Source of the DNA: Phoronis australis
Lineage: Eukaryota; Animalia; Phoronida
Reading direction: 5' to 3'
NCBI GenBank assembly: GCA_002633005.1
Contig: NMRA01000097.1
Span: 322,686 to 386,685, forward strand
DNA: 64,000 nucleotides
In this document: piece by piece, positions 5,975-52,869 of the stretch
Numbering within the stretch: the first letter of the stretch is position 1
Layout of the letters: the number at the start of each line of letters is the position of its first letter
The notes under the pieces: generated by a model
What the model was told of the DNA's origin: nothing
What the model saw: only the letters and a program-made list of their open reading frames with translations
Databases searched by the model: none
Position numbers and translations under genes: made by a program

Positions 5975-6023
5975 TTTATTAGTAAAGACAGCGAAAATTG
6001 CGAGTACATACCCGAAATTTATT
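5975..6023 (-). terminator. Candidate polyadenylation signals (AATAAA twice)
   Basis: TTTATT on the plus strand at 5975-5980 and 6018-6023, about 260-300 nt after the stop codon. Confidence 0.3.
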
Positions 6024-9278: not shown

Positions 9279-9331
<53 letters not shown>

Positions 9332-12300
9332 CACACACAAACGCTAAGTGTCGCCTCGGTCCAAGACACACTAATAGCGGTGGTCAACGTAAATAGTCCT
9401 GTAACGTCTTTGTCTTTTCCTTCGCTAGCGATAACCACTAAGTAGTTCAACTGACGCCACGTGAGTTAGGCAAGGACTAGCGCGAAACTGAGCGAAGCGC
9501 GTTACCTGGCGTGTGGCAGTTGCAAAATAGCATGGGAAGGTGTAGCTTTGGCGCAAAGCTTTATACTAATACACAACTTTGCTCTAATGTCGGCAGAAAA
9601 AACGACCAGATAAAAGCTGACACAAAATTAGTGTCATTAAAACTACGCGCTTCCTTCAGTACACTAAATTATTTATTGTTTTTGGAAAAATTGGCGTTTT
9701 ACCGTTCTTCTGTTGTTAAAATTGCTGTACGATCTTTTGCGTTGGCTTTCGGGGCAATGAATTATTGCGTCTCCTGTTGGCCAATTTCTTTTTCAACGAT
9801 TATTCAGTGCCGGGTTGCATGATAGAGTCCCATATAGGGACTAAGTTCCCTAAATCTTTCGCCTATTTGTGTCTTTGTTCACTCGCAGATATAATCTTTT
9901 TTATTATTTCATCCTAATTATGATCCCCTCTTTGACTAACGACATTTTCTAATAACATTAACTAAAAAGTGAGCCCTGAGTTCAATACAAATAAATAGGG
10001 ATTAAGTCTTTAATTAGGAGTTTTGCATGAAATGATCGCTCTAAATTTTCGGTAACATTGAGAACTCAGCGTCAAGTTCGCTCTGGATTTGTATCAAAGC
10101 CACAAATCGACTGAGTGATGATACTGAAAGAGCATCATAAAGGACAATCAGTGTTTTCACAAGTCCACAAATACGCCGTGGATTTAGGGAATTTAATTGA
10201 GTCCCTATTTGGGACTGTTTCATGCAACCAGCCACAGGAGTTTGGTGCACGTCACAACAAATTATCGGTGTTAGTTTTACTCCATACTAAGTTTTTAGCA
10301 TTCTAATGCCAAAAAAACAATTTCTGAACAAATTTTGCTGGTGTGAAGATGTCATCATCTCCCGAGAGATGTAGCAAAATTTAGTAAATGGCGCGTGCGA
10401 GTCTCAGGAGCGAAACTGTTTTCAAAACGGCGACATGCTCTTCTTTGTTACAGATAACGTGCCGGTTGACTCTCAGATTGTGCATGCATTTCCCATGTCT
10501 TTAGCTCTGCATGTTGATACTAGTTTTACGTCGAAGTGACGCACAGAGGTACCCTAGCTGTGTGCAAATTCGAGGTCTTTCGGTGCTCAACACCCAGTGT
10601 TACCTAGCTGCAATTTGACAATAGTCTTCATAAAATTAGCTGGCTGGCTAGGGGAGCTGAGGTGTAGTTTGTAAGATTTGTGTGCCTTGTACTTTTTGTT
10701 CATCAATAGGCGTAATTCCACGTAACTTCTCAAAATGGCAAGCGGATAGGGAAGCTCGAGCGAACTGCTAAAGATTTTCATTGATATGTTCAAGTTACGT
10801 TTGATTAATTATATCCACAGTCATGGTATATATTAATTAGAACTCCATGTGCATATATTTGTGTTCAATTCGATTTTATTCCCTTTATATTCATTAACTG
10901 TATGGGGGTGTACTATCGCCCTTGATGCCTGCGGCATTCAGGGCGATATACATTAATTGCGTAGTCGTGCTCAGGTTTACATGTACAACGCTACTCTTGT
11001 TTCAAAACTGCAGGTCTTATATTTTATTAACTAGGAAGGAAATGGCATGTGCGTTGCAGCACTTCTCTTTCAGAGATACACGCCAGATTATAACCAAAAT
11101 TTTTGAAGGATTGCAAAATGACATACACATTTTTGAGAAGTTCGTTACAATTAAACAGATAGCCGACCTGCTTGCGGGATTCTAAACATTCCTCGCCCCC
11201 CTCTCTGCTAAAGCAGCATTGGCAGTTGTAATAAAAGCAGGTTTCAACTAAAAACCATGCTTACTGTGTCAAAGTGGGATATTGTGATTCTTGGTGGGTG
11301 AGCTTTCCCCACAATTGTGGTGCAACTTGCCAGAAGCAGAGGTTAAACACTTACCGATATGCAGCAGCCTTACATGTATAGAGGACCTTTCAGAATTTGC
11401 TGGCTCCAAATGTTTGAGAGTTGACGGGGGTACAAAATCTGTGGGCCCTCGACTGTATAGGAAAATTTCGTGAGTACCTTCACCTGTCAATTTATTTTTC
11501 CTCTGTCATTGAGTAAAATACTTCTAATTCATTCTTTAAAAAGTTACCAAGATTTGAGTTAGACATTGCACATAAAAACGATGTTTTTATGGCTTAAACT
11601 ATCAAATATGTTGAACAGTAGAATGCCTTGTGACAGAAATTTTGACCAATCACAAACTGAGAAACCAATTTCTGGATCCCGTGGTAGACAGAAGTAATAC
11701 ATCTAAGTACTCAGGCAAAATACCGTTAAAACGGCTTAACCCAAGTTTCCTTCACTACATTTTAAAAATACTTTACTTGCTTAAGATGTTTCTTTAAATT
11801 GACATCTAACATTCAAATTAGTCCGGTAAGATGCATGCGACAGTCTTTTGCTCAATAATAACGCAGTGCACACGAACTCCGAATTTCACCATTTTTTCAA
11901 TTTCTCTAGCAAATTACACGAAGACGTCCAAATTAAAAGCGGCGACGTCTTACATTTGAAAAGTACACATTTGCATGAGGTGGGACTCATTAAGGTACCC
12001 AGGAAACACATTTAAGGTCCTACAACACAGGGCTCACTAACTAGGTAACATGGCATTACGTCGTTTTTAGGCAGTGGGCGAGATCTCGTAGCATTCATTG
12101 TTGTGAGTACTTTGGGGAACGACATATTTTTTTCTTTGCGGGTAGAGTATACACCCATAAATCAATTTCCAAAAAGTTCCCACGGCAACATTTGCATATT
12201 TTTTAAAAAAGGTCTTTTTAGTGCACGGAATATTATGCACACTCCGGCCACTTGGTTGCGCTTTTCTATTAAATTTACCAATCAAAGAGCCAGATTGTGT

Positions 12301-15300
12301 CGTTGTTCTTAGAAACTTCAATATGGCAGCTCTTGATGCCTGTATAATTCAAGGGTTATCAAACAGCACTAAATTGTGATAACCAGAACTTGAAGTAGCT
12401 TACAGAAGCAACCTGAAAAAGCTGATGGACTGTGGATCAGTATAGATGGGAAATAAGAGGTGTCACAAACGTTTGTGCTGGAAAACATCTGCTTTGCCCA
12501 ACTGGCTTATAACATGTCCTGATACACTGCTGTAGAAGATCAAGTGCCAGATAAAAAAATGAATGGACATACATGTAGCAACGCATACCAATGTTTCAAG
12601 ACACGAGCAGTAGTACTAATGCTGAAGTTATTATAAGTGTCACAGATTGTACCAAAGATGTACAAAGAAAACGAATTAGACTTCCAAAATCTGGAACACC
12701 AATTTAACCTTAAAACATTGGAACATTCTGACACATGAGTGCATCTTTTGTGAACAGGAAAAGTATATTGTGGATCGCAATTCAAGAAGAAGTAAGATTT
12801 TGATAGCTTTGAAAATTAGGTTATGTTTTTGAAAGGTACATCCCAGTGTTTTCCTAGTGTGTTCAATATTATCACCAGTTGCTTTTTAGCTTGTTCAGCT
12901 CCTTTACTGACCAGGCCTAAGACAATACCACTGGCTCCGTAGAGATGATGATCATACCACATGTCTTCCGTATGTTAGGTGCCTTTCGGCAAATGGGGCT
13001 ATTTACAAAATTTACATTAACTAGTGGGCGCGCGTGTACTAGTGGTGATAGATTAAGCAGCGTTGATTTCGCCACCCCTTTAAATACATGGTGAAATGGC
13101 TTGCAGCGGTGTCAACTGAATCTGAGATTGTGTGAAAAGGGTGCTTTTGTGAGAGGAAGTAAGCACGACCTTATACACTGTAAAATGGTAAGGTTTGTTA
13201 TTATTTGAACGATTATTCCATGTTTATTCTACTGATGCCTGTTAACTGAGGTATTCGCCGGTGTCGAGTTTGCGGCAGTCGCCAGTCGGGTTAGTCTTTG
13301 TTGTGATGTGTGTTATGATACTTGACGTAGCACTCGGGATATTTTCGTACACCAAAGCAGCATTATTGTTTGAATGATTTCTAACAGGTTTACCAGTGGC
13401 AGTTACATCAACCAATGCTGAATGTTTATGCTGTCAACTCGATATTGGTTAGTGAGTTAAGATTACAATTCAAGCCCAATGGCAAAGGGTACGTGACAAA
13501 TATCAATTAGACTATTTGTTTACTCCCTACCCTATGTCTTCCGGAAATCTATTACACGTTGAAATGGAAATCTATCTGTCTGTTTTCACGTGACCTTTGG
13601 GTTTTAGGTTTGAGGGCTTGTACTGGGTAGAGAAGATATGCATCGCACCAGAGCATTCCCACACACCAGCAGTGTTGCACGGCACAATGTACAAGTCAGT
13701 GGCCCCGGAGAAATGTGATCCAAAGTACTAAGTTACCACAAGACCATATGCCAGTGGATTGTTTGTGTATGAGGATGAACTGCATGTATGTGTGACTGCT
13801 ACACAAGTCAGCCTCGTTGGGGGAAATGACGATTGTCTTTATTGTCAGTAGAAGGCCCGTTCATGTTACACTTTGATGATCGAATTCGTGTTTCACCAAC
13901 AGGCAAGTTTGTCACTAATTATTGAAACCACGGAATCTCTTCAGTTTTGAAGCCCCATACATTGCAATGCTGCTTATTCTTGATAAATCCGAAATGATTA
14001 CCAAATACGCTTGCAAATTTTTTTTTTCCTGTTGACCTATAGATATGTGCAGCGATCAAAATGGAATACTCCATTTGTTTCCATTTGATTTGTTTGTGCG
14101 TCTAATTTTTTTGGAGCTTTCTTAAGAAGGCCTTTGAAAAATTTTAAGTTTTGTTTTAACCTGCCTATGAACAAAGGTTCCACATGCGAGAATAGTATGT
14201 TTTCAATTGTAGCTAGCTGGATAAGAATCTGCTATGCACAAAATTCAAGAATAAGCAATTATCAGTGTATTTAAAAACAAAATGGCAAACTGAACAACCA
14301 CACACATACAAAGGAACAGCATTGTTGAAAACAACTGTAATTTTCCCAATGCAACGCAGTCTATAATCAGGCATATCAAGTGCAGGATTTCTGAATTAGG
14401 TTCAATTCTCTCGGGTTATTGCTTTTCACTTGGCCCAAAGGTAAAATAGACGTTCAGGCGGAAGGTTTCAGTCGTTTTCTCTCACCTGTAATAGAATACG
14501 TAGAAAAATATTAGCAAATTATAAAAAAATACAAGACAAACTACTTTTGTAGGGCAGAACATACATGAAGTTTCATCTTCATGTTTACATGCAGAAAATA
14601 ATAACCGTTCTACCAAAGTCTTATTTAAGATCTGAATTAAAATATGTGAACCATGCTAAAAGTGTTTTAACAATGTGTATTTTTCATGACAACTAATACG
14701 TGCTTCTAAATTCAACAAGTAAAATTCATTCTAAATGTCAATTTTAGTCCAATATAATGTGACGACATTTACTGAATACTGCTTATTCATGTTAAATCGG
14801 TAAATAATTTGGTAGTCCTGGGGGTGGGGTCCGCTACAAAATAAGGAAACTTACACACCTAGAGAATTTTATTAGACATAGCATAGTTTTGAAGAGAAAC
14901 TGCTGTGAAAAAGTCACCCTTGACTTCTGAGCGTCACGTACCATACGCCTCTTATATTTGGCGCAATCCCACCCAGGACAAAGTGTGAATATGTGCTGCA
15001 AGCCTACAAGGAATCCGAGTCCCTGGTGAGTTTCCGAAAAGAAACTCTTAGTTCCACTCAATAAACCCGTTACTCATTGGGGTAAACGGTGGGGATAACA
15101 TCAAAGAACGATGTCGACAGATTGCTAAAACTTACCAAGCAACGTTATGTAGTCTTCCAAACACACATAGAACACACACGGGGCTTCGGCATAGTCACAC
15201 TTTTTGTCAGTTGGTTGACCTCGTTGACCGCAATTCTCCATGGATGTAGTGACCTTAGGATTTTGGGAATTTGTAACAACCTGTCGAAGACTTGCACCCG

Positions 15301-18300
15301 GGAAAATAGCACTAATAAGGCTTAGCGCGACGACGTATTTTCGTAACAATTCCACCTTTTTACCAGCTATCTACATGCAGACAGCGACACATGCGCAATT
15401 CAATCACCACTAGTACAGCAGCGACACCGCCAAGAGAATTCACCGAATAGCCTCATTATGCATCACACTGATGAATCCATCAGTCAAGTTGCTATGAGTT
15501 TAAAAATACCTTTTTACTGTAGAGTGATGCCTCAGAAGGCCGTTAATGTTTTTGTATTTGTTCCCAGTATAAACAAATTCTTCTGCAATCATGTTTTTAG
15601 AACAATCCGTTGTTCAGTTGTCAAAATCGACACTGCTTGGGCCAGGGGACAACAATATGGCGTTATACTGTGGGTGCGGTTTTTAAAGAATTCCACTCAC
15701 TTTACCGTCTTAATCTGTCTATATCCGCATCACCTCACGATCGATTTTACTTTGCCAAGAGGTGTAGCATTAACGTGTGAGGAAGGTGATAAACGATGCA
15801 GCGACGTCAGTGGTTCTTCGGCAGAGTAAATGCCGCTATGGTCTTGTGTATCGTTTCCGCTTGTGCGAACTATGAAGCTGCGAGGAAAGCCGGTACATGC
15901 TTTTTTATGATTTTCTAGAGAGTCCATCATTCTTCGGAAGTGGATCGTGGTAGTGAAGAATCAAAACAGCGCCGTTAATAGCAAATATGAGTACGTAAAA
16001 TTTCTCTGTGTCTGTCATTGTCCTGCACTTCGTCAGATCGGTGGTTCATCAGTTTTTCATTATGGAGAATGGCAGTTGGCCATGAAAACATAAACAATTA
16101 CAAGTATAATTAATCCAAGGCGTGAGAACATAACGTTTTATATAAACTGTTTGATGACTGACTCGTTCGTTCGGCTTCTGTCTGGTCCTCCGAGCGTAGG
16201 ATATTAGCCGCAACTTCTTTTTCTCAGCCCTAAAAACGTCGTAAGCACACATTTTGTTAAATGCGGCGCAAAATCTGGATAATCCGTGAGACAGATCTGC
16301 CCTTTTCCATGAATTTGTTTCACTTGAGGAATTTCGTGGCAGCAAACGCCGTCAATCGGTCCATCATCGTGCAGTTACCTCACTGACACCATGACAAGTT
16401 CAAACGGTTTTCGGAACTATTCATATGTTCCGATGTCAGTGCACGTTCACGCACTCTCTCTGTGATTTCTTGATCCGAGTACTCCTGTGAAATCTAACAA
16501 TCGACCTGTGCAGTCTTCGTCGGATGAGCACTCGTCTAAGTCGGGATTGCGAGTTACCAAGTTGACGTTTATATGCGCGTTGGTTTCCGAAAAGACTAAT
16601 TCTCACCTTAACCAAGTACAATGTATGCTTATATCAAACTGAAACAAAGTCTGTCTCATTAGATACAATTTGTATACGTTGGAGTGTTCGTGAGTGCAAA
16701 TGAACAAGTCACTGCATTACCGGATTTAGATGTAATAAACGGCGGCTACTTACAGACCGTGGGCCGTGAATCCCGACGTGAGAGCATGTTAATTCAGTGT
16801 TTGCTGACAGAAAGCTGTTGCAAAATAATAACTCCATTTTATATCCTATTGTTAGATATTAGGGAAATCTTTATTTAGATATCCATATACATTATTCGTA
16901 TCATTGTTAATGTACAACTATTGCCCTGACGGTTCTGAGGAAGGGTAACCAGACTTCGCGGCCCCCGAAGAGCTAGTATGTAGATTTGCAGTTTTGTGGC
17001 TAATTCACCAAATTAATCAGCATGCACATATTTTCTTTGGTTCACTAGTATAGTTTTTTCGTAACTAGAAGTTTAGTTTCCAACTTTGGCTGCTTTATGT
17101 TCGTGATGTCTTCAGTCCAGCAGCGAGATTGGCCTGGTAGAGTTCCGATCCACTGCCAGGGATAGCAAGCGTTTTGTGTGTTTAGAACAGAAAAAATGCA
17201 AGTCTAAAATAACAACACGCAAATATGTTCTCCAGTCTGTATTTCACGGAAGAAGAATTTGAATTTATCACCAAACAGACCCTAAACTCCCGCGACCGAC
17301 CTTGCCGTAAATTGGTCTACCGAACTTTGTTTGGAACAATACGTTCAAATACCTTAGAAAATAAATCTGAAACTAAATAAGGCGATCCACATCCTTCCAA
17401 GGATACTATTGATTCACGAAATGTAGAATATAAATAGGTAAATAAAACAACAAGAATGGATCAACTGAAATTTTCGGATGTAATAGCATTCTTGGTCAAT
17501 AGAAACGGAGACCTAAATATGCAAATGTAATCCAAAGATAAATACCTTGAGGCTTGAGAATCCAAGTACCACATGTCATCACGTTATCAAAAGATATGAA
17601 GACAAAGCTTGTGGAGAGTGGAGAATCCACAGTTTTCAGAGATGTTTTTCTACAGTTTTGTTTGGAGTTCATTGAATGAAAGCTTCTAACATATGGAGTT
17701 GTCATTCGTCTTTCAAAACTAAAGCAAGCCGTGCCTCAGAAAGCTGGAGTGCACGAAGTTATTTGGACAGGCAATCTTACGAAACGACTGTTGAAGATAT
17801 TAACTGTTGCAGCCTGGGCCCAACTAAGAGAGACGAAAGTTAACTGAGGCTAGTGAACAGTAGTTCGCTTGCTGACACACTAAATAACACACATTACGGC
17901 GTCCTGTCGTTCAGTAACTTTTCCAGGCGTGAGGGGTGCTGAACGTGCGCTAATATCTGGCTTAACTTAACTTTCATTTTTATCAGCCCACCCCAGTAAG
18001 GCTAGATACGATCTGATCGGAGATTAGAGCAATTATAAAACAAAAGAGCGCAGGCCCTCCTACCATCAACGCCAGAATGGAGTTGATTGGCTACGGGGGT
18101 AAACTTCCCAACTTGTTGTTGAGCTATACAATGGAACAAGTTGGGAGCAACGGGATGTCGCCGTCATGAGCTCATTATGATATATTTTAAATCAAATATT
18201 TGCCCAAATCCTGCCTACATTCAAACAAGGACTCCGTGTTTGACCCTTCAGTGCATGTGGGCCAATCACCAGTTTGCAATGTTGTATCCTCTTTAATCGG

Positions 18301-21300: not shown

Positions 21301-24300
21301 CGTCACACGCTCACTTAACTCCCCCCCCCCCGGTATTTCCACCTTTCAGAGCGAAGTATCACCAAAGCCAAGGCATAGTACGGACGTAACTTTACTTCGG
21401 ATTAAAGGAAAATTTCACCCGATTTAATTAGTCATTTTTACCGTCTTAATCGGTCTATATACACATCGCCTCTTATACGGTGGACCTCACCTTCCCGAGA
21501 GGTGTCGCGTTATCCTGTGAGGAAGGTGAGAAACGACGCAGCGACGTCAGTGGTTCGTCTGCAGAGTGAATGCCGCTATAACGCGGTGCATCGTTCCCGC
21601 TTGTCTGAACTAAGAAGCTGCGAAGAAAGCGGGTATATCGTTTTTTTCGACTTCCTCGAGAGCCCAAGATGCTTAGGAAGTGGCTCGCTAATATCAAGTG
21701 TGAGGCCGTGAAACATCTCCGTGTCTGTGGCCGGCATTTCGTCGACAGTGATTTCTCTGACGAATTCCGGCTTACCAAACAACTATCCATACATGTATGT
21801 TACGTTGCCTGTGCACGTTCACGGCGCCTCTCTAGTATTTCCTGATCAAGGTATCCCGGTTCGAATTGGTAGCCTGTGAAACCTAACGATCCGATCCGTC
21901 GGATGAGCTCTTGACTAACTATGTCGGAATTGGCGCCGGGCGAGTTGCCATGTAGACGTTTATTATTCTGCGTTCTTTTTCAAAATGAATTATTCTCATC
22001 CTAACCAATGCTTGTATAAAACTGAAACAAGGTCTGTCTCGTTAGATACAATTTGTAATGCCTTTGCCGTACTCGTGAGTGCAAATGTGGAGAAGCCAGT
22101 AATGAATAAACCACTGCTTTACCGGCTTTTGGTGCCGGCAATAAAGGTAATTGACCGGGCACCGAGCCCGTGTCGTAAGCGCATGATGCTAGGGTGTTTG
22201 CTGCTGACAGAAAGATGTTGTGGAACAATAACTCGTTTTTATATCTATGGTCACATGTTAGGGGACTCTTTATTTAGAAATACAAATACGTGTACATTAT
22301 TCAAATCATTGTTACTGCACAACCTTTGCCCTGGCGGCCCTGTGGAAGTCGAACCCGACTTCGCGCCCCCCGACAGATGAGTAGATTTTCAGTTTCGTGG
22401 CTAATTCCCATTATTTCTTTGGCTCACTATTATAGTATTTTCATGACTGGAGGTTTAGTTTCCAACTCAAGCTGATTTATGTTCGTGCCAGTCCCGGCGA
22501 CCGCGACGGGCCTGATCGGGTTCCGAGCCACTGGCCGGCCGGATAACGAGTCAGTCCGGCCGCGACGGGCCTGATAGGGTTCAGAGCCACTGGTCGGGAT
22601 AATAATCGTGTTGTCTATTTTGAACTAAAAAAATCATATGTCTAAACAACACGGCTCTAGGTTTTCCGTTATGTATTTCACGGAGGAATACTTCGAATCT
22701 GTCTCCGAACAGACCCCAAACTCCTGCTATGGACCTTGGTAAATTGGCCTGACGAACTTTGTAGGCTACGGTGTGTCAAGATACCAATAAATCCGTAACA
22801 GCGAAATAAAACAACACGCTTCTATAAGAACTCGGTGTATTTTTAAGGGTTTTACATCGAAGTTTGATTATTAATTGGTGTTAAACAATGAATTCAAGCG
22901 ATAACCTGACATCAGTAACCCGTGTTTTGAACTGCTGAACAGACTGCTTGTGAAACCAATTACGTAATTGGATAATTTCAACACCTCCGTCTGCCGCCAG
23001 GTATCAGGTAACACAACTGAACATGCCGTTATCGAGTAGAACCACTCGACCTAAATTGATACAAAATGGGTTGTTCTTGGGTGGCATTCTCTTTAAACCG
23101 CATTGTGGATTAGGGCTAGCTTCGGTCCAACCGCGGTTTGGAGCAGACGCGGTTTAGCCGCGTTCGGTAGGAAGAGACTTTCGATCAGTACTGCACATGT
23201 GTTTTTACATGCTACATACTTTGTGTAAATGTCAGCCACCAGATCTTGCGTTTTTGGCCTAACTTGCGTGAACGTGAAATATTTTGTGGTAATGGCTCGC
23301 AGTGAATAAATTAACGGACATTGCAGGCCAAATGAGACATAGTCCGATTTATTACTGCAATAATTTGCGATTTATTCCAATATTATTACTTCACTCAATG
23401 AGATAATAACTAGAATATTGATGACGAATAAAATATTTATTCCAGTAATAAATAGTTATTACTGGAACATATCAGATGCCAGGAATAAATGCTGTAATAA
23501 ATGTTCATTACAATATCTATTCCTCGATTGTTTGGCTGAAGAATCAGTAATGGAATTAACAGGGGAGTTATTACTGTGATAAATCGGACTGGTGTCTTTG
23601 CCGTGTCCCACTTTGTCTGTCTCCAGGTTTTGCTCTGTTCCTGTATTACTGTGTCATTATGTTTCCACTTTAGAATGAAACAAGTAACTACTGTACATGT
23701 ATGTTACAAAAGGTCGTGACTTGTCTTTAATCTTGTCTCTTGGTCACTTGCTTCATCAATGTTCTGCTGAGTGTAGAATTTTTTTTCTAAGGATACGAAC
23801 GGAACGGAATAAAGATTGTTAATAACCACAATTAATATAATTTGCAAATACGCTTACAAGGTGGCGAGTCCTTTATCGTAACGCCGCTTTTGTGTTTGGT
23901 CGAAACACGATTCCTTTAAGAGTGCCGAACAAAGGGTGACTACCGGCTGATTCGCATGCTCCACACTGACATCCAACTTTTACGGCGTACACACCGTTGG
24001 CATTACTGTGTAACTTTCACGTCTTTAGGAATTTTGAATACACATACTTTCTCCGTCAATTTTCTTTTTCTACAGCCTCTATATTTGAAAAACGCAGCAT
24101 ATCACGAACTTTCCTAAGCATTGCGGTGGTAAAAACGACAATGACGGAGACGGTTTTCCATTAATTAGATGCAATCCCGATAACAAAAATATATTTTTGG
24201 ACTATTTAGCTTGCTTCTTAGCAACAGGTTTACTAAAGGCTATTAAATCTCTTAAGATGAATTAATGACATTCTTTTTGAGACATACATGTAGGTTCATG

Positions 24301-30300: not shown

Positions 30301-33300
30301 ATTAATTTTGACTACACGTAGTTGCCCGGCGGGTTAACCAATGGAAACCTCCTGAATACAACAACTAAACCTGGGCTAAAATGAACAATAGCGGAACGAA
30401 GGCGAAGAAACAGGTAGCGTCCCCTTTGGTCGCCACCAGCTTCACCCCGACCTAAAAGGTCATGTAATTTTGCCGTCATTTCGGTTTTCAAATTAGCATC
30501 ACGGTAGATCATTGTTTCACTAAAACAGCAAACTTGTTAATTTATTCTACGTAGTTGCCAAATTTTCCCATCAGTCGGTCTTTTGATTGGTTTCACGCTA
30601 AAACCACTTTAACAAGAGGGTGCCCCCTACGCTCTTTCACAGTGCTACAAAAGGTGTCACTGTGCAATAACGTTTATAATGTATTCTGATTGGTTAAAGC
30701 CTATCTTCAACGGTAACACCTGAAATTTTGGTTCCTACAGTATGTTAAGAGCATTGCTCGGAGCCCACTGGTGCCATAAATTGAGAAATTTAACAAATTG
30801 TTAGGCGTATTGGCTTGCTTTTGCCTACATGACCTCGAGAATCACCGTTTAATTGATACAGCTGCGAGTAACAACCGCACGCAAAGGTGTTCTTTTAGGA
30901 CCCCTATTCAATACAAAACTTATTGTTTGTCCTGGGATCTCGCGGTGACGCAACACGGCACAAAAAGGCAACTTCACTTATCATTTGACGGCTTACATTT
31001 GCCTGACTGAACTCTGGTTTTATTTTTTTACTAAGGCTTTGCTAGGACTATCTGGTTAGTCTAATACATCTAAAGTATCAAAATTCCGTTGAAATTAGGC
31101 TTTAAAGTAGTGAAACTGACGTCATAACATTCAGTCATTCCCATTTGTTGAAACTGGGGAAACCTCATTCAGTTTACTGTTGCGTAATATGGTGACCACC
31201 CTTGGCTTGAATAGTTGCAATTTATTAAAATGGGCAGTGATCGAAGTAAACAAAATCAAGGGAACACCGATCCCGTGGCTAAGCCCAAAACAAGCACAAT
31301 GCATAGAAGGCGTTTGCAAGTGGTGGCGATGTGAATGATAAACTTTCAACCAACCATGCGCATTGAAGCCCACATACGGATTTCCCTGTGTCGTTCATCA
31401 TGTTTCCACGTGGCCACTTTTCAATACAGGTGGCGCTGTGTCAGAGAGTATGTGCCCTCCATAATTATTTGTAATCATTAGTTGAACACTCGTCTCTACT
31501 CCCTGTGTCTAGATTCCTGCGTCGGCATTTGATATTGAACGGGCATTTTCCTTCGAAGTGCTATGATGTGTCCGGAGGGACGCTGCCAATTTCAACCCCA
31601 TATCAGCTGTAGTCGGAACCTGCGGTGTCAACACTACTCATGATGTCATGAACGTTTTCATCGGACGAGAGAGCGACACCTTCATTAAACATCGTATTCG
31701 TATTCTGTTGCCACAGAATTACTTTGAGTGGATTGCTTAGTGTTCAGTTTTGCCACGCATAAAGCCTCTAGCTAAATCGAGTATTTCAGATTTTATGTAG
31801 AGTACAGCAAAACGCATTTTGACAAATCAACGCTGTTGTTAAACTTTCTTTACCTGGGCAATGTCCCCATTTCTGGTCGCTCTCGTAATTAGGGGTGGTC
31901 GCACACCACGGTTGTTTGCGATCCTCTTCAATGCACGCACTGTACGACAGGCCCTTGTAAACGAACGGGAACGTGCACGATGAACCACCGGCATTACCGC
32001 CATAAGTTGGCAGGTCAGTATCTGTGGAAAGTATTTTCTCAATACGTTTCATGAATTACCATAAATACACATCCACGAGTAGACCACACAAAAATGATCA
32101 AAGCTACATGTAAGTCACGGATTTTCTTGAGAATTTTACGATAGTAGTAGTATCCACTTTCATTCTTCAGAGTGCGCCATCTTGTGATTGCTAAGGCAAC
32201 AAGTTGCTTTTCTGCCAAATGCAAGCCCAATTGCAGCTACATTTTGGCACATTTTGGGATCTTACCTTGAAAGCAAGTATGCAAGATGAAACACTACCTC
32301 TATTAATACCACTGAGTTAAGCTATCTTTAATCTTTTCAACTATGGAAAATATTACATATGCCAGTCATATCGTAGCTGTTTTGAATGTTACAAATTTAG
32401 CTGTTCGATGGCGATTTTGAAATGTTGTGAATTGACCAAGTTCCTGCCTCCATATCTTAATGAAGCCAACTTTAAAACAACAAAACGACATTTGGTGTTT
32501 AGAGTGACTTTATCTCATTGAAAAACCTAAATTTTATAAGCACTTCTTCATATCGCATCGGACAATCGAAGTTGGGTACATGGACATCATCGCATTAGCA
32601 AGACTGGACAATATCTCTATACCAACGTATGTATATGTATGCAGGTGATTCAAAATAAAGCTTAGAAGTATTACATGTGATTCTGCCACTCCAAAAGTGT
32701 CAAATACATTATATTTCAGAAGCAACCAAATTCCCTGGGTTGACAGAAAAGAAGAAATGATAGCGCATCAAAGCGCGGTATTTTCCTCCGGCCTTGACGA
32801 TAATGCTGCCAGGAAGTCCATGCAATCCATTAAAATTGAATACCAGAAATGTTCATTGCATGTATATCTAGAACTTTACAATGATATAAATTCAGCTCTT
32901 AGCACTGTTGCTCTAGGAATATACAGCATCATATATTTAGTTCACAATGGTTACGGTTTTGAAATAATCTAACTACACAGGCATCTTCGGTCATATGCGT
33001 CTGCAAATTTCTGTGCGCATCACCAAGGACAGGTCAGTGACACAAAAGATAATTTCGTTTCCTGTTTGAATATTATTGCTTACTTCCGAAATTCTTTTAT
33101 CCTCGGTTAGAAGGTTGTGTATAAATCTAACAAATAGATATACAGTGTAAATGTGTCAAATACATGTAACTGGAAACTCGAATGAAACTTGAAGGCACAT
33201 GACTAATTGGTTAAAATTTTAATTTGATTAAGATAGTTGTTTGTTATTTTTTGCAAAGTCGGTTAATTTGGTCAGACCCACCTCATTTCAGTGTAGAATA

Positions 33301-36300: not shown

Positions 36301-39300
36301 TTCGGAGTGTTCGTGAGTGAACGAAATGATTTGAGAAGCCAGCAATTAATACTGTCATTGCCTTACCCGGTCCGGCTTTAGGTGCAATAAAACTAATTGA
36401 CGGGACACCGCGAGACCGTGTGAGCTCATGCTAATTTAGTGTTTGGTGGCAGAAACTGTTGTGAAACAACTCGATTTCCACCCCACGACCAGGCGTTAGG
36501 AGAATATTTATTTACATTAACATTACTCAGACAATGATTGTTACTGCAGACTGCAATGTTACGTTATGTTACGTTATGTTATTCCGATTGGGCGTACGAA
36601 TACACTTTTTTCCCGCCATGTAAGAGGACTTTCTACACTGTAGTTCTTGCGCCAGATGTCGCTCTCTCTCTGACTATTTATTCTGGTACCGCTCTATTTG
36701 AACGCCATTCCACAAACGTTTTATGGTGGATGAACGTCAATGTACATAGTTAGTTTCTTCGGAATTTTGGTTGGACTTGGGGCGATATTGGCGTGAGTAC
36801 TCATGTTTCTTACAATACAGTTTATTTGCATTCATTAGTATGTTAGTTTTTCATGTTCTCTCAGGTGTACTTAATGTTTTGAACGCTTGTCATTACTGTA
36901 TACCCTTTGCCAGTTATCATTTTACTTGGGCGTTGTCCTCCTAAATGTTACTGTATATACATGGTAGAGCCCTATGCATCATGTAAGCTTGAACATGGTT
37001 TTTTGGTTCTTTCAGTTTACCTACTACGAATACTACAACTACTACTACTATCACGCCTCCTACTACCGCAACATATTATGTAAATAAAGAGTAAAGCCCC
37101 CCGAACCTGTTTGTTTTGCTCCAACAATGATTGTTAATGCACAACTTCTGCCCTGACGGTGCTGTGGCCAAAGCGGAATCTAAATTCGCGGTCCCCGACG
37201 AGTAAGTAGATTTGCAGTTTCGTGGCTAATTCACTAACATAATCACGTGCACATTACTTTGGCTCACTAGTATAGTATTTTCTTGACTGGAAGTTTAGTT
37301 GCCACTGAACTTTGACTAGTTTATGTTCGTGATGTCTGGTAAGTTTCCGAGCCGCTCGGCCGGGATAACGAGTCAATCCGGCCGGCCGCGATCGGGCTCC
37401 GAGACACTGGCCAGGATAACAAGCGTTTTGTGTTTATAACTCAAAAAATCACAAGTCTAAACAACACAGATCTAGGCTCTCCTGTCTGTATCTCACGGAA
37501 AATACTTCGAAATTATCTCCGAACAGACCCCAAACTCCTGCTACGAACCTTATTGGCCTGCCGAACTTTGTAGGCTACGGTGTGTCCAAATACCAACAAA
37601 TCCGTAAGAGCGAAATAAAACAACCCTTTTTTATAAGAACTCGGTGTATTTTTAAGGGTTTTACATCGAAGTTTGATGATTCATTGGTGTTAAACGATGA
37701 CTTCAAGTGATGAGCTGACAACAGTAACTCGTGTTGTGAACTGCTGAACAGACTGCGTGTGAAACTGATAACGTCATTGGATAATTTCAACACCTCCGTC
37801 TTCCGTCTTCTTGTGTCTTGTAACGCAACCGTACGTGTCGTTATGGAGTAGAACTACTCGATCTAAATTGATACAGATTAGTGTATTTTTTGGGTGGCAT
37901 GCTCCTTTGAGAAGTGTGGCGATGAACGAGGCCACGTGCTTGCAAACATCCAAAGACTTACCAATAAAGTTCCGCTGTCGCTAATGGAAAGGTAGTTCTC
38001 GTAGTAGTAGTGTCTGATGTTAGCAACCGGGACTTCGTCACATTCTTTATATGGCGCTGTGTTTGGGAAGAAGATACTTTAATGCTAATATCCAATATTA
38101 AAGTGTAGGTCGCTGGTTTAGTAAATACTCATGAGTTGGCAGTATCAAGATATCTCTCCATGTAAGCATGTGTTCACATAGATTCGATAACATTGATACA
38201 AACTTGTCTACTTGTACTGATACTAGAATAGACAGCAAGAACCGGACATTGTGGCCGAAAAAAATAACTGTTATAGATGTTTTACAAGATACAGCGTTTC
38301 ACGCTCCCTCTCAGGCATGCCTAGAATCATTCACAACGGCACTTGTTTACTAGTGAATTCGTCTGCTAGGCAGAGGACGGGTCACAATTCGTTGCGTAGA
38401 CAATGTCTCCTTCTATCCTCGAAAGGTTTGACACTTGACAGACGCAGATACATGTGTCAGTTTCTCATGTTCTCCGTTTAGTAAGATGAGATATCAAACC
38501 TAACCAGCTTAAGTGTTTTAATTCTAGTGCATTGTGATATCTTGTAAAGAGTGTATACTTGTGCGGTCTGGCCATGCTCGCAGGAAACTTCAAGCTCCTG
38601 AGTAGTTAACTACAATTTTATGATAAACTTGCGTGCATATTTTCAGAGATTTGGCACATTTTTGATGGGAGCACTCGAGTGTTTTTGTTTGAGAATTAGT
38701 TATGTGGAAACTTAATGCCGCGCGCAACTCCCCATGGTCAGGAGGTGCTCTTGACCTACACTGTACATGTATCCAAGTTTTAAACAAAGGAGCTTTTACT
38801 CATTAGTGCTCGGTTGCTTGGAACAGTCCCAAATAGGGACTCAACCAAGTTCCCTAAATCTACTGCGTATTTTTGAACTTGTGAAAACATCGATTGCTCT
38901 TTCTTGTATTGTTTTAGTTTCATTACAAAGTCAATTTTTGACTTTGTTACAAATCGAGAATGAATTCGACGTTGAATTGTCTATGTTATCAAAAATAATT
39001 AGAGATCTTTTCCTGCAACACCCCCAATGTAAGGACTGAGTCCCTATTTTTTCATGGACTTTGGGCTCAGGTTTTAGTTACATTATTAGAAAATATCATC
39101 AATCAAAGAGGAGCTTATAATCGAATGCACAAAAAGACTTAGTTGAGTCCCTGTTTGGGACTGTTCCAAGGAACCGGGCACAGAACCGCTTACGAAACCA
39201 AAGTCTAAAATTTGTAATGGTATGAACGACTTACCCACGCAGACTCCCACGTTGTTAGCGCAGTCCTTCACACAAGCCTGGCTTCCGTCAGTGCAATTGG

Positions 39301-40536: not shown

Positions 40537-40622
<86 letters not shown>

Positions 40623-45112: not shown

Positions 45113-48100
45113 GTCACTTGTCGTTATCATCAATGCTATTGCGCGACTGATCACCACGGACAGTTTCAAGGCTTCAATAATCAGAAAGTCAGTCGTAAAT
45201 CTCTAACGAACTCTCTCTATTATGTCTCAAATTTAATGACAATGATCAGGTGAGTTATTCCTAATCAATATCCATTGTGCCATATTCTAAAGGAAATTGA
45301 ATCGGGTGAACGGAAAACAAGCACACGGTTACGGGTACATATGTATAAATACATGTAAACAATACACTGGTGATTTTGACCACCCTCCTTTGTTACAATA
45401 TTCGTCAGATTCACTACGACGTAACCATATGCACAAGCAAATTTTAAGCTGGTGCAACGGATTTCCCGTGCTATCCTTGCAGGGCAATAGGTAGTAGGGG
45501 TCAACACTTCACCCCTTGATGAATTCAAAGAAAAACATTTCCCCTGTGTTGCATAGAAACCAACTTATAACCCACTACAAAAACAACTGCATTTCTGTTA
45601 ACTTTCTCTGTTCTTTTCAATTCAAATTGCGGGAATCACATGCTTGTTAGGATATTTTACCTAGAAAACAGCGTACAGAAAACTTGACCACATACAAATC
45701 AAGTGCATGCAAAAGCAGAACCTAGATGACAGGTACCAAACCACTACAGACACTGTTGATTAGTTAATTAGTTGAGCTACACATATTAAATGTGGACATA
45801 ACTATTTTACGAGAGAATAATAATACAAGTTGCTTGCGGAATTAACGTTTCTACAGGTACAGATTGTAACGTTGAGTATGGCATTGATGGTGGAAATCGC
45901 GCTTCTCTTAGAAAGCGCAACTTACAAAGCCATCGTACATGTAGCAATTTAAATGGTACGGGCATGGTTAACGATGATAATGACTTTGCCTGTCGGCAGC
46001 CTCGTTTTCGGAAACATTGGATTTCCTAAAAGCTCGATCTACACCACCGCCACATCCACCTAATATTTTAGAATGACAGGGGAGTTCAATCATTTTGAAT
46101 TCAGGCTCGCCTTCTCTTCTATTTTCACGTGTTTGGGATTTTAAATAAACGACTGTGGTATGCAATTTCACAAAAGAACGTTTAACGATAATGGCGAAGT
46201 AGGCACTTGTCAAAACAAGGTAATTGGTGGTGAAGTCTCATGCTGCAATTCCCAGATTTGGTTTTATCAATTCATTCAGTTCAACTTGTCTTTGACGGAT
46301 TTCCGTTAAGTACTTTATATGGAGGAAATGCACGTTGGAAATTAAAATTCGTCAAATATCGACCAGTAACAAAATTATGATCGTTGCTGGTATAACTCAA
46401 TTCATTTTGACCATTGTGTATTGAATAAGATGCTGACACGTTAAAGATGATGTAAGTTAAAAAGGCATTGACCTTTGATATGCTTTACACTCATCGAGAT
46501 TATGTGCATGCATGTGGTCATGGAAAATTTAAACACTCATTATAAACCAACATAAAGAAGACACTACTGTTCCGGTTGCTGTCGTCATTGAATTAATATA
46601 TGAAACAATAGGATTGTTCACTCAGCAGCTGGAAATCTAGATAAATGAATGATAGCAACCAGATTGTCATTCAGGACCTTATAAACAGCTCTGTGTGCTA
46701 TACCAAATATCTAGAAAATTATACTCAATTTGATTAACAGTCTGTCATCAGTTAGCTAAGAAGACCATACATGTAACTTGTTGGCTAAAATGTAACAAAA
46801 TAAAAGGAACATTAATATTAAGAAAACGGTATTCATAACTTGAACAGATTTAATTTGATACAAAACTCTAAAACTAGATCGCTAAAACGATGTAACAGTT
46901 AAGCTTAAGTACATTATTTTGTTTTCGGTTCATAAAACTTTTGTACGTGTATTTCCTTGCACATGTGTATCACAAAATTCCTCTTTTTATACCATACGCG
47001 TTGAAGTTGTCCAGGCAACTACGCCCAAGTTACAAATGTTTTCCGTATTCACCTCCCCCACTACTTCAACAGCGACCTCTGTGGGCGGTAGGTAATGAAT
47101 AGGAGGGGTGTCGCTGGTCGCGGCTATCGTGGGCTGTGGGGGTCGAGGGAGACACGTCGTTTTAGAACGATCCTTCAATAATATCTTCATCATCGACACT
47201 CGGCTTAAACGATTGGAATTTGGTTAAAAAAGTCGTAAATGGTGACCCACACTATGTATCTATGGTGAAATGATCATTTGAGTATTGACATTACTCTAAG
47301 TGTTAGTAGAGCATCATCTGCAAAGCACAGAGTCCGTGGTCTAACAATATACTTTTGGTACGAAAAAGTACGGCAATCTGAACATACGTGTAGATTGATC
47401 TCCGGCGGCTGATTGCTCACTGCACCGCAGGTTGGGCACCATAAATTGTAACACGTTGAGGTGAGGCAAAACCCGATAGTAACTTTAATGTCGTCGAACC
47501 TACTAAACGCCATTGTGACTAGAGTGATATTTATTAGTGGACGTCAAGTCAAATCTTCAACTCTGAAGCAATGACCTGCATGTACATGTGCATACCTTCC
47601 AAACTAATTGTGGCGATTCTCTCGAAAACAACTATGCTCTCTGAGAACAGGTTAGAAGACCAACATCGTTACATAATAACATAAAAGCCATACAGAAACA
47701 CAGTCAAAATTGTGCAGGGTTAGCACATTGGGCAACAACCAGACTTATAAATAATGACCCGCTGTTCAAATTCGGAAAAAAACAAAAATCCTTTTTTTTA
47801 TTCAATAAATAAAGCAAATCAGATCAACGTATATAGAAGACAAGGCACAGACAGAACGCTGAAAATATACAGCTATCACGTATGCTTCATAACGTACATG
47901 TACAGTTCATTGTGGATTAAAAAACAAGGTGTTCCGTCAAGATCACGCAAGTTTTCCCGAAACATCGATTTTCGACCTATTGCTCGATCCCAATGTCTAG
48001 TTTTCACCAGCTAAGCCTTGCGTTACGGAGTGAGACTTGATAGGTTTTGTATCTCATTTCCCGCAAAAAAGTGTACTTATACGAATATTATCAAAGTTCG

Positions 48101-48411
48101 TTCGGAGAGACAGCGAACATTGCGAGAACATACATGTACGCAAACTTTTTTAATCGACCGAGCTCTATATTCACCTAGTGTGTCCTTCTTAGTTTGCCAG
48201 CTTTCAAAAAAATGAGAACAGTTTCCTAGACTTTGGTCACAATTGGCAACTACGAAGACAATCCCGAAATAGGAAATTGTTCGAATACTTAAAATGTAAA
48301 GAAACGTTTTTCGAATAACGCGCTCAAGTATGTAGAGCACTCAAGCAGCTCTTGCGTTTACGTGATCAAAAAGTGTGGGCTGTGCTTAGAGCGTGAAATC
48401 ACACGTGCTCT

Positions 48412-49483
48412 ATTCTAAGGAATATTTCGTTGGCCATCGGACGACTAATCGACTCGTAGCCGGTGTAAGCGTCCTTCTCAGTTTGTCCAGGACACGTCCG
48501 TTCGTGTAGTTTTATGCTGTATTCCGCTACTGGAAGTTTGCAGTATCCGCCAACTGCAAGTAAAGAGCACAAAATATATTCATACGAAACCGGACAATTT
48601 CATAAAAATAGCGGTTCGCCTTGTAAGAATGCTGTAACAGGTGAAGTCATTTACCCAAACGCTCGAGCTGTTTACAGTTGAAGACGACACTGGCAAAGCA
48701 CTCGCAACTGTTCGGTTACTGAACGGGAACAATAAATTGCAAGCCACAATTCAAAATTCAATTTTCATCGACCAGTTACCTAATTAAGCTCTCACTTTTC
48801 GCTTGCGTTATTTTATATAATTTTACGTGACCTTGTTTTTCTGAATTTCTCGCGTCTAAGGAACGCATCCCTGAGCTTGGCGCTAGCCTAGTAGGTACAC
48901 TGTACATGTAACACTGTCACTTGGGGGTAAATATCATGACTTCTGAAGAAGCAATGCTATCGGTGCCTCGTTCAGGCAACTGAAACTAAGGTTTCAATTT
49001 TCTGAAAGATGTCTGTGATACCGTTTATTCTTCATGACTACAATGTCAATACAGCCGTTTGTGTTCAAAAGGCAGGAAATGTCGTCAATGAACGCCTTGC
49101 ACCATTTCATGGTCTCAAGTTTCATTTCCACTTGATATTTCCACAACATCTTAGGCTACGTGCAATTTTGTTACGACTCGTCTAATTCAAGTTAACATTT
49201 CTCCCGTCAGAAATGACTGTCGTTGATACGCAAAGAGCAGGTTGGTCACGCGTGAAAGTTTCCTTTTCGAGAAACATGGTGTTTGTTGGTCATCGCCCAC
49301 GTTTTCCGTCCTGTGGAATAGACTTTGATAAACTAGTGTTGAAATTGGTCCAGACGTTGAACGGTCGGCTCCGTTAAAGTTCAGGTACCATCGGGAACAT
49401 CCGGGGGTGCCGTTCTGTCGGAGATCACCGTTGAACTGTACCGCTAGCAAACTCTAAGATGACTCTTTGTGTATGTGGTCGAC
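48412..49483 (-). pseudogene. Pseudogenised duplicate of exons 11-12
   Basis: The exon 11 copy (about 49270-49483) has a 1-nt deletion near its start, an in-frame TAG, a further indel and no GTAAGT donor. The exon 12 copy (starts 48553; GGYCKLPVAEYSIKLHERTCPGQTEKDAYTGYES) is frameshifted at its end. Confidence 0.85.
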
Positions 49484-51509
49484 TTCAGACGACATGAAAC
49501 ATACAAGCAATAAAAACATATTGCTTAAGGTGCAGTAACGTGGGCATTGTGTTGCTACTGTTTAAATAATCATTGAATAGCACTGGTTATCTTATATACG
49601 CATTTTAAGCTCACTTATGTGATTATAATTTGGACACTGTTGCAGCAATTTGCTACCTGTCAAATATTTTTCAAAGATACTTGACAGATTCTGGTAAAAC
49701 TTCACAGTATAGCTTGTGCAAAGTTATGGTGAACATGGCTTAACAGGGTTTCATGAAACATGACGCAGAGATACACATATATATGGCGGAGAAGAATAGA
49801 TTTTTGGTCAATTTTGACTGCAGTTCGAGGTGCACATTTATTTTCATTCTTGGTATGGACTTCAGTGCATAATAAAAATCAATTCTATGGTTTGAAAACC
49901 TGATTGATAGTTTGCAACCGGAACTGTTGAACGAAAATGTCCGTTTAAAGGCATATTAAGAACTACATATGCGGGTACTTCGGTAGTATGTGTATAACCT
50001 TGAAAACTCCGTTACAATCAGTGGCTATGTCGCTTGTTTACATGTTGGTTTTGACACGGGCTTAAAACATTAAGTCAGGAAATAAGGTGTCCTTGTCTTA
50101 CTTACTTTGAAGTTGGCCATTTTTGCATACTGAATATACCTTTAATTAATTATTCATCAATACAACGTCTGTGGTTTAAGAGAGATGGAAAGCATCGTAA
50201 AAATGCTACCCTAAATGGATTGTGTATCCAATAGGCATCTTGGCTGCTTTAAGTAGGGATACAAGGCAGGTTTACTGGACAGCAGGCAGGAATTCCATCT
50301 CTTACTGGTTGTCAATCCCCTATTCCTGTTGCCAGCAGTTCCATTCAACACAACCCATCCCAATTCGCTACCCATTTCAGTTCCCATCAAGCACGAATGC
50401 TTGGGGTCCAGTGCCTGGTTGCATGAAACAGTCGGATAAGTGGCGATTCCGCCATGTTTCATAAATCTATTTCGTAGATTTGTTTTCTACGTTGAATTCG
50501 CAAAATTATGCAACGCCCCTATTTTAAGTACTAATTCCCTAAATGTTTTGTCACACTCAAGTGCGCAGTTCTTTAGTTATATTATTAAAAAATGCCATAA
50601 GTCAAAAGAGGAGCTCGTCAGTAAAGATAAAATGATAGAAAAATATAACAACGGAGAGTAAAGAAAGGAACATATTCGCAAAAGATTGGGGCTACTCAGT
50701 TGAGCACAGGCAGATCCATGGGGAATCAAAGGGGTCCGGCCCTTATTTTGTTTGATGTTAGTGATATCAAATGTAGATATAATTTCGACCACGCCTATTA
50801 AAAAACCTTTAACCCGGACCCCCTCACCTTTTAAAAATCCTGGATCTGCCTTTCTGAATTCGTGTTTGGATGGCGTAAGGTGACAGTTTTTGAACATTGG
50901 CGTACCGAACATATGACGGTTGGGGGAGGAGAGTCTGTTAATTTTTCACTATTATTTTAAAACCAAATTTGTGTGTTGAAAGTTTTAATTATTAATTGTG
51001 AATTAATTGATATCAACGCCTGGAATATTGAGGGTCAGAAAGCTACCTTTTGGTTGAGGAGCGCCAATCGTGTTTGCTCCTACCTCTCCTTCACTAAATT
51101 ACAAAAAATCCTTCAGGTTCTGCAGCTGCCGACCCTCCAATCATCTCTTTCACCTTCGCACCTCTGGTTAATGAGTCTCCCTCTTGCTTATGATATGTAT
51201 TTCTCGTAATTTATATTATCTTTGCTGCACAAATTTGTATCGATTTACTCTTCATTTGCCTAGTCATTTTTCCAATGCATTGCTTATAATTTTTCTCAAT
51301 TTTGAATTTTGCAAACCATGGTAATCAATGCCTCCTGTACTTCGTCGGCGAGCACACGCACACAGGCTAGGTGTCGCCACGGTCCAAGACACAATAATGG
51401 CGGTGGTCAAAGTGAATAGTTTTGTTAAAGTCTTTGTATTTTCCTTCGCTAGCAGATACAATAATAACCCATCAAGATATCTCACTAGTGAGATAACATT
51501 TTGACGTGA

Positions 51510-51579
51510 AACCGAGGCCGGATTCGAACCCGGGCCTCAACAGTTGCGAGTCGCCGACTTTACCACTACACCACTCAGC
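51510..51579 (-). repeat. tRNA-derived sequence (SINE head or tRNA pseudogene)
   Basis: Minus strand GCTGAGTGGTGTAGTGGTAAAG...GGGTTCGAATCCGGCCTCGGT with Pol III A and B boxes; poor D and anticodon stems; absent from the paralogous segment. Confidence 0.65.
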
Positions 51580-52869
51580 GGTGACGTCATCGAACGTGAA
51601 AACACAATACCTAAATGAGCACGCGCAACAATTGCATGTTCAGCAAAGGGCATTACACCGACAATTATACGCTACGAAAGCTAAGACGCATAATTTCCAT
51701 AAAAACGATATTTTAATTCAATGAAATGTTTCTCTCGTGTTCTCTCACATGTAAATCACCGATCTCCAATTTGAATGCATGTGTTGCGGTCGCGATCCTT
51801 TGACTTGAACATTATAGTCAGTTACTAGTGGTAACCTACTTTAGTAGACGATATACAGGTGTAATTGATTGAGCGATGAAACTAAAACAGCATTATAACG
51901 GATAATCAGTGTTTTCACAAGTCCACAAATACGCCATATATTAGGGATTTAGTTGAGTCCCTATTTCGGACTGTTTCATGCATCAAGTCACAGGAGTTTG
52001 CGTGCATGTCACTACAAACTATCGGAGTTGGTTTCACTCTATACTAAGTTTTTGCATTCTAATGCCAAAAAAACATTTTCCGAACCAAATTTGCTGGTGT
52101 GAAGATGTCATCCGAGAGATGTAGCAAAAGTTTAGGAAATGGCCCGTGCGGGTCTCAGGAACAAAACACTTTTCAAAACGGCGACATGCTCTTCTTTGTT
52201 ACAAAAGGCGGAGATTTACGAAAGACAATTACGTTTAAAATATTGTTTTTCACTTAAACGGCTGTAACAGGCAACGTGGCGGTTGACTCCCAGATTGTGC
52301 ATGCATTTCCCATGTCTTTAGCCCTGCATGTTGATACTAGACAGTTTCACGGTGAAGTGACGCACATAGGTACCGCAGCTGTATGCAAATTCGAGGTCTG
52401 TCGGAGATCAACACCCAGTGTTACCTACAGTAGCTGCAGTTTGACATTAGCTAAGGAAGCTGAGGTGGAGTTCGTAAGATTTGTGTGCCTTGTAATTTTT
52501 GTTCGTCAATAGGCGTAATTTCACGTAACTTCTCAAAATGGCAAGCGGATAGGGAACCTCGAGCGAACTGCCAAAGATTTTCATGGATATGTTCAAGTTA
52601 TGTTTACTAAAATAGATCCACAGTCATGATATGTGTTAATTATAACTCCATGTGCATATATGTGTGTTTTATTCGATTTTATTAGCTTTATATTGAGTAA
52701 CTGTACATGTATGGGGGTGTACTATCGCCCTTTACGCCTGCGGCATTCAGGGCCATATAACTGCCTAGTCGTGCTCAGGTTTACAACGCTACACCCATGT
52801 CAAAACTGTAGGTCTTATGATTAGGAACGAAAAGGCATATGCGTTGCAGCACTTCACTCTAACACTTAG

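Follow-up and report, generated by a model that had tools for sequence, protein, structure and literature searches.

The octamer TACATGTA recurs throughout a 64,000-nucleotide stretch of the genome of the phoronid Phoronis australis (GenBank assembly GCA_002633005.1, contig NMRA01000097.1, positions 322,686 to 386,685 of the forward strand), hereafter called the window, and comparison of duplicated segments showed that the word arises at a TA site by the gain of six letters (+CATGTA). The words are probably scars from the excision of TA-targeting transposons of the Tc1/mariner/pogo type, of one family or several, with CAG..CTG ends; such ends are proposed from the excess of TACAGTGTA and from the gains of +CAGTA/+CTGTA. 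The original prediction, made from the letters of the window, left the maker of the word as a transposon or some other site-specific process, and transposon scars are favoured by our analysis, although no such element was found in the window. All positions below are counted from the first letter of the window.

TACATGTA is present in 32 exact copies in 63.5 kb, about one per 2.0 kb, whereas Markov models of order 1 to 3 predicted 1.6–2.4 copies and 200 dinucleotide shuffles gave a mean of 1.58 and a maximum of 6. The early estimate of some 30 copies against about 2, roughly one per 2 kb, was thus accurate. Once N runs and (CA)n were set aside, it was the most frequent 8-mer, and among words of the form TA-NNNN-TA it alone was strongly enriched (19-fold, compared with 3-fold for the runner-up). 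Its spacing was indistinguishable from uniform (Kolmogorov–Smirnov p 0.47), with no block structure within the window; the range first proposed, 10978..52711, lies within this field, but the field extends wider, from 5480 to 62580. Short-read contigs passed without gaps through seven of the sites (28093, 29127, 33161, 35136, 38764, 32105, and 34039), so the word is not an assembly error, with the reservation that the window may itself derive from these contigs, which do not count as independent. One-mismatch neighbours of TACATGTA numbered 54, compared with 37 ± 5.7 in shuffles. Among single decayed forms, TACGTGTA/TACACGTA were in excess (6 vs 1.8) and TATATGTA/TACATATA were not (3 vs 2.7), an asymmetry of decay. 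Pfam-matched exon contained no scar in 1,359 bp, where 0.68 were expected, a sample too small to give power on exon depletion. The CpG observed/expected ratio of the window was 0.91, scar count climbed with this ratio over 16 bins (rho 0.58, p 0.02), and no tie between scars and methylated-looking (low-CpG) DNA was seen in the window.

To compare paralogs, we drew on three copies of one high-copy repeat and on gene duplicates at 4989-11068 and 47088-52858, which are 11% diverged and have a third partial copy at 61.2–62.8 kb. The four pairs on which the original prediction was built (10978/52782, 52704/10901, 48131/6009, and 21790/36031) were exact in coordinates and letters; in all four, and at a five-letter gain at 52426, one copy has TA where the other has TA..TA, as in a duplication of TA. 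In three-way alignments, the six letters of 10978, 52704, and 21790 were each present in one copy and missing from two. For 10978 and 52704, the outgroup was the third copy, which differs by 26–28% from both others, while those two differ by 13% in that alignment. All three sites with a third copy therefore polarise as net gains relative to the ancestral site, which is the opposite of the deletion of an ancestral motif that had been named as the outcome that would overturn the prediction. At 22287, repeat-family reads without the six letters were found, and at 21790, 298 reads (some 152 starts) jump from 21785 to 36027, in agreement with a scar-less state of the repeat. Two scars (5796 and 6769) are older than the gene duplication because they are present in both gene copies. 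The copy at 10949 has an independent five-letter gain at the spot matching the 62558 stack.

A strict census of 10,745 aligned paralog columns gave 104 clean indels, of which 42 were of 1 bp, 14 of 2 bp, 6 of 3 bp, 10 of 4 bp, 8 of 5 bp, 7 of 6 bp, and 2 of 7 bp. Its filter excluded 21790 and 6760 owing to nearby gaps, and 15701-17353 vs 35658-37594 entered as local pairs. Five of the seven clean 6-bp indels were scars (four exact, one with one mismatch), compared with a null of 0.5% for random places (p 7e-11). A spike of 6-bp CATGTA insertions had been expected: the excess of CATGTA was confirmed, but the 6-bp class formed no large spike by length. None of the ten clean 4-bp indels was an exact +4 scar, and the six-letter gap at 34725 was not a scar. 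Alignment breaks of divergent contigs at 32106 and 33167 coincide with scar edges, which is suggestive only.

The scars have variants and are often found next to one another. TACAGTGTA/TACACTGTA occurred 7 times compared with 0.68 expected, a number reached by none of 200 shuffles, and the indels between paralogs included +CAGTA (52426) and +CTGTA (6760), which were rarer than +CATGTA. Nine of the 32 scars adjoin a further scar-like word; with paralogs and neighbours merged, 6/28 loci were stacked, compared with 3.0% for other TA sites (p 1.5e-4), and 5/28 loci (p 1.3e-3) when only mixed stacks were counted. At 16/32 sites, the TA is neither preceded by TG nor followed by CA, so the inserted letters are not generally copies of the flanks. 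Unstacked sites showed a flank bias at ±2 (p 3e-4), and that at ±3 was weak. The scars at 28089-28100 and 35132-35143 have TA-GTG and TA-CAT in front, possibly other or decayed scar types, and TACACTA/TAGTGTA was found in 7 copies in the window (a raw count).

Between the two gene copies, 3–4 gains per 5,020 aligned bases at a Jukes–Cantor distance of 0.122 correspond to one scar per 153–204 substitutions, or a gain rate per TA of 7–9% of the per-base substitution rate. Gain balanced against decay of the eight letters predicts one intact scar per 1.2–1.6 kb, and since this density is near the observed one, scars seem to have accumulated over a long time and not in a burst. The one-mismatch excess fits activity over about 0.17 substitutions per site (0.04–0.45 for other excess values). 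A read depth of 2.4–3.1 from 1,938 million letters suggests a genome of 0.6–0.8 Gb, which by extrapolation would hold 300,000–400,000 scars if the density of the window held throughout.

Tc1 excision leaves 2-nt non-complementary 3' overhangs (PMC4490562), and Tc1/mariner overhangs are joined by end-joining into footprints, with Sleeping Beauty leaving CAG (PMC8151067). The product TA-CA-TG-TA, named in the original prediction as a Tc1-type footprint, is indeed a documented product of Tc1 excision: it was found as class L in 24/103 frame-selected Caenorhabditis elegans germline revertants, in 10/36 lig-4 animals, and in 3/39 polq-1 animals (PMC4490562 Supplementary Data 3), and for the Tc1 footprint Eide and Anderson 1988 is cited in PMC3520976 and PMC13148408. 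The field in the window works like a Tc1 footprint in its TA duplication and net gain; judged from the sequence, it is a candidate for that class, no element having been seen in the window.

The following cycle is presumed. Insertion would duplicate the TA, the transposase would cut 2 nt inside each end to leave non-complementary 3' overhangs with CA on both flanks, and germline end-joining would keep and fill both overhangs to give TA-CA-TG-TA. Cuts of 3 nt, or mixed ends, would give TA-CAG-TA and TA-CAG-TG-TA. Each scar would then offer two new TA sites beside CATG, and these would attract further insertions and lead to stacking; the attraction is expected because the half-site CATG-TA matches three of the four letters of the Tc1 half-site CAYA-TA (PMC9635669). 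The cycle would have lasted long enough to bring gain and decay near balance, with full elements cleared far faster than scars, by re-excision or by selection.

The retained letters CA/TG and CAG/CTG equal the ends of Tc1, of Sleeping Beauty, and of an element at metagenome locus L049, all of which are elements of other organisms. A metagenome scan queried with the stacked 15-letter word returned at least 118 loci. With the query masked, the 118 loci listed contained 125 further motifs compared with 12.3 expected, and 13 of these loci were enriched at p<1e-3, whereas 120 viral loci chosen by the same procedure showed no enrichment (27 further motifs vs 22.8 expected). In 15 scar-rich loci, with the query site excluded, 18/87 sites were stacked vs 4.8%. 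The CpG ratio of the scar-rich loci was 0.51 vs 0.75 (16 vs 45 loci of at least 2 kb, leaving out the tandem array L015), a comparison confounded by species. At L049:1706-1892, a 175-bp element with CAGTG..CACTG ends (18/20 terminal letters match) and a TA duplication lies within the second TA of TACATGTA, which is the intermediate expected from the re-targeting step. This element may be pogo-like in appearance; it had no match in phages, and its end pattern was not found in the window. Several of the scan matches arose because a family of TA-flanked, CAG-ended small elements (L028:4113-4559, L035:309-1106, and L065:5605-6168) carries the stacked 15-letter word in its body. By blastn, the window matched 0/118 of the metagenome loci listed, and a 22-letter piece of the high-copy repeat gave 0 loci in the metagenome scan.

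Several results weigh against excision scars of such a family. The original prediction had called for a search for abundant Tc1-like families with TA-flanked CA..TG ends, and this search, run on the window by inverted repeats and TA-flanked scans, gave no convincing candidate against 32 scars; its matches proved to be paired scars or segments within larger repeats. A Tc1/pogo transposase domain was matched by none of the 240 window open reading frames of at least 62 aa in Pfam. In 31750-35330, the best-supported 12 of 24 indel rows showed no intact scar that was cleanly present in one allele and absent from another, and the best-supported read-alignment rows contained no occupied allele, the single-copy depth being 2–3. 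The required scar rate is very high, and it is estimated from 3–4 events. As a count, the 5-letter word TA-CAG-TA/TA-CTG-TA was not enriched (13 vs 9.4, reached by 26/200 shuffles), nor was the +4 scar TACATA/TATGTA (50 vs 42, reached by 22/200 shuffles). The Tc1 consensus is not matched at ±1 of the scar flanks, and the ±2 flank bias was not repeated in the scar-rich metagenome loci (p 0.5), where T at ±3 was found instead (p 0.002). The 24/103 share overstates the +6 product because recovery of the worm revertants depended on their reading frame. Stacks could instead stem from templated synthesis in one repair event, and pure CATGTA stacks from slippage. The L049 element is one among the 118 loci listed, comes from another organism, and was chosen by a query containing the element's end, and L040, a contig with several TA-flanked small elements (5562-15440) with CAGGGTG-like (CA..TG) ends, was not significantly scar-rich.

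The lack of candidate elements beside 32 scars would also be expected if a transposase-type enzyme, free or host-domesticated, stamped CATGTA without a lasting element and with no occupied allele ever inherited, whether by abortive or instantly reversed integration or by capture of tiny end fragments. The per-TA rate, very high for a two-step process, the single dominant product, compared with 26 products in 103 animals in worm germline repair (PMC4490562), and the enrichment of the word in unrelated DNA (the 13 metagenome loci) agree with such stamping. We nevertheless consider it unlikely: the literature examined describes no such reaction, quick re-excision or selection against full insertions would account for the scarcity of elements without new chemistry, L049 has an ordinary element within a scar, and the CAG and CAGTG variants agree with ordinary overhangs. 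The wider proposal that CATGTA is stamped by one self-reinforcing process in many lineages of marine animals, at almost a tenth of the rate of point mutation and without an inherited copy of a transposon behind each scar, is likewise a speculative one, to which we give a small but real chance. A transposon-independent templated insertion that turns TACA/TGTA into the palindrome, through polymerase-theta, fold-back synthesis, or the opening of hairpin ends as by hAT/Transib/RAG-type enzymes, appears improbable. TG before or CA after the TA was present at 16/32 sites vs 15% of other TA sites, and 24% of the repair products at Tc1 breaks were templated (PMC4490562); however, the remaining 16 sites have no template, including the polarised gain 21790 as well as 48131 and 32672, other TA-NNNN-TA palindromes were not enriched, though general fold-back would make them, and the TG/CA excess is in part the stacking itself. 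Hairpin-type footprints (hAT/Transib), with letters mirrored from the flank, were rejected on the same 16 sites.

Two further explanations have very little probability. Selection for a transcription-factor site, whether to keep TACATGTA or to gain it, is suggested by Phytophthora, where the word is the commonest promoter motif and is bound by PsMyb37 (PMC11134190) and where it was interpreted as a factor site, not a footprint (PMC3520976). Here, however, the insertions are copy-specific and also lie within transposon copies (21790 and 22287), they decay by single substitutions, and they are evenly spread; selection would leave the CAG variants and the stacking unexplained, and later use as a binding site is possible. 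An account of the differences as TA-microhomology deletions that removed an ancestral motif, as products of CpG decay, or as assembly artefacts is just as doubtful and is largely refuted. Microhomology between the two TAs would ease precise deletion, 25/103 worm revertants regained a single TA (PMC4490562), and 48131 is unpolarised, but three sites are polarised as gains and deletion leaves the excess unexplained; other TACGCGTA decay products were without marked excess (TACGCGTA 0, TATGCATA 1), and the motif is carried by short-read contigs.

The positions of the scars and of other features are given in Table 1. The window is repeat-rich animal DNA of 39% GC. It contains a tandem cluster of genes with a CTHRC1 C-terminal domain, whose exon pieces lie near 6.3, 7.2, 19.9, 26.1, 33.9, 34.2, and 49.4 kb; several copies look degraded, and a homologue search of the cluster among longer proteins gave no match. 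P elements have CA..TG ends and a 7–8 bp duplication, and they were rejected as the source, as the net gain here is six letters, TA alone is repeated, and there is no 7–8 bp target duplication. Two broken frames (53326-54209 and 41578-43201, both on the plus strand) presumably resemble BEL/Pao-type gag and a non-LTR (long terminal repeat) reverse transcriptase; Pfam gave no matching family. The high-copy repeat has a read depth of about 2,500, compared with 2–3 for single-copy DNA, and by its ends and degenerate THAP domain it fits a putative non-autonomous Kolobok, a class defined by a TTAA target and RR termini (PMC6004289). This Kolobok-like repeat is a substrate that carries scars and not their source: its target is TTAA, compared with the TA duplication and CA..TG of the scars, and two scars lie inside it.

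Table 1. Positions of scars, variant words, genes, and repeats in the window
Feature	Positions	Strand	Description
Exact TACATGTA, first half (starts)	5480, 5796, 6776, 10978, 11371, 12570, 21286, 21790, 23694, 24285, 28093, 29127, 32105, 33161, 34039, 35136		
Exact TACATGTA, second half (starts)	38764, 45350, 45936, 46768, 47895, 48131, 48903, 52704, 54216, 54974, 56621, 59313, 59319, 59348, 62558, 62573		
Scar	10978..10985		+CATGTA gained here; missing in sister copy (52782) and more distant third copy (~62602)
Scar	52704..52711		+CATGTA gained here; copies at 10901 and ~62510 without the six letters
Scar	21790..21797		Gained within one copy of the high-copy repeat; missing in copies near 36031 and 16440
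Scar	48131..48138		Plain TA at 6009; two copies, direction unpolarised
Stacked scars	5480..5497		One extra 6-letter unit (one mismatch) vs paralog 47583, where the common scar decayed by one letter
Scar	5796..5803		Common to paralog 47895
Stack	6769..6783		7-letter variant TACACTGTA stacked on TACATGTA; common to paralog 48896-48910
5-letter variant	6760..6766		TA-CTG-TA; missing in paralog near 48890; gap placement less clean than others
5-letter variant	52426..52432		TA-CAG-TA; missing in paralog near 10604
Stack	62558..62580		CATG scar twice plus a CAG scar; exceeds the copy at 52753 by 17 letters
Stack	59313..59355		Double scar 59313/59319; CTG+CATG stack 59343-59355
Stack	23689..23701		CTG+CATG
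Stack	38757..38771		TACACTGTA stacked on TACATGTA
Decayed scar	22287..22294		TACGTGTA in high-copy repeat; 728/1329 reads and 17 contigs without the six letters
Decayed scar	32672..32679		TACATGTG; divergent contig, ~88% identical, without the six letters after TA (at 32674)
CTHRC1 C-terminal-domain gene cluster, tandem	6285-7399, 19617-19985, 25891-26214, 33759-34396, 49190-49453, 61243-61579	minus	Pfam
Fibronectin type II exon	31789-32055		Alongside the CTHRC1 gene cluster
PAN exon	44490-45113		Alongside the CTHRC1 gene cluster
High-copy repeat family	21402-23096, 35623-37910, ~15680-17350		TTAA/AG ends; degenerate THAP domain (21609-21842, E-value 1.8e-8)
Inverted-repeat element, ~280 bp	35344-35626		TTAA/AG ends; Kolobok-type small element; right TTAA common to the large repeat beginning 35623
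Small inverted-repeat families	9807-10235, 25439-25854, 38806-39181; 60298-61160 and 24584-25206; 27630-28220		Arms of 40-58 nt, non-CA ends; element at 27.6-28.2 kb with TA/GG..CC/TA ends and scar 28093 within
Degenerate array	3866-4233		Palindromic AACTTAAGTTTT units; 49-nt inverted copy at 756-804, 3.4 kb upstream

Footprints are usually regarded as rare curiosities of single loci, but here they look like one of the main classes of small insertion, at roughly one per 150–200 substitutions in duplicated segments. If these are excision scars, they constitute a record of cut-and-paste activity that repeat annotation misses wholly, and their number implies that inserted copies nearly always leave again. 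The +6 product preserves the reading frame, can be dated by its decay, and creates a word that motif searches would call regulatory, while the dominance of +6 over +4 bears on how the germline here joins broken ends. If, instead, the letters were stamped without an element, the word would represent a major mutation signature that has gone unrecognised, one that seeds stacks resembling microsatellites and provides transcription-factor sites ready for use; the Phytophthora promoter motif TACATGTA might be among these sites.

The scar itself is known, but the literature searched did not describe it as an insertion class that is dominant, persists over a long time, and stacks on itself; in a search that left most subscription papers and bioRxiv supplements uncovered, no paper presented TACATGTA as the signature of insertions throughout an animal genome. 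With C. elegans Tc1, the field shares the identical eight-letter product, the duplicated TA, and a net +6, explained by two kept 2-nt overhangs, and it may also share part of the target consensus CAYATATRTG (PMC9635669), with Y at −2 and R at +2. In the worm, however, +6 is one of 26 germline products and is termed rare, and +4 is typical in the soma, where it makes up 78% of Tc1 footprints (PMC13148408), whereas here +6 is dominant, +4 is not enriched, scars occur once per 2 kb, and the window has no element. Sleeping Beauty also targets TA, and the minor +CAGTA/+CTGTA class corresponds to its footprint (PMC8151067). ZB footprints are of 0–3 bp, and those of the pogo element Passer, with target AAGTACTT, are of 0–4 bp (PMC8151067, PMC7913693, and PMC9976928 jointly), so that a 4-bp footprint is within the Passer range. 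These three systems differ in that they were described by cell-culture excision assays of single elements, and the main product here keeps four letters, not three; the scar flanks match neither ATATATAT nor AAGTACTT fully. The Phytophthora promoter motif-1/AM-20 is TACATGTA itself and is highly abundant in non-coding DNA (PMC3520976, PMC11134190), and Seidl et al. rejected its origin as a footprint on account of that abundance (PMC3520976). A binding factor is known there, whereas here the origin by insertion is visible in paralogs. To these systems, the window adds the absence of a low-CpG link, quantified stacking, a rate consistent with balance, and gains polarised by an outgroup.

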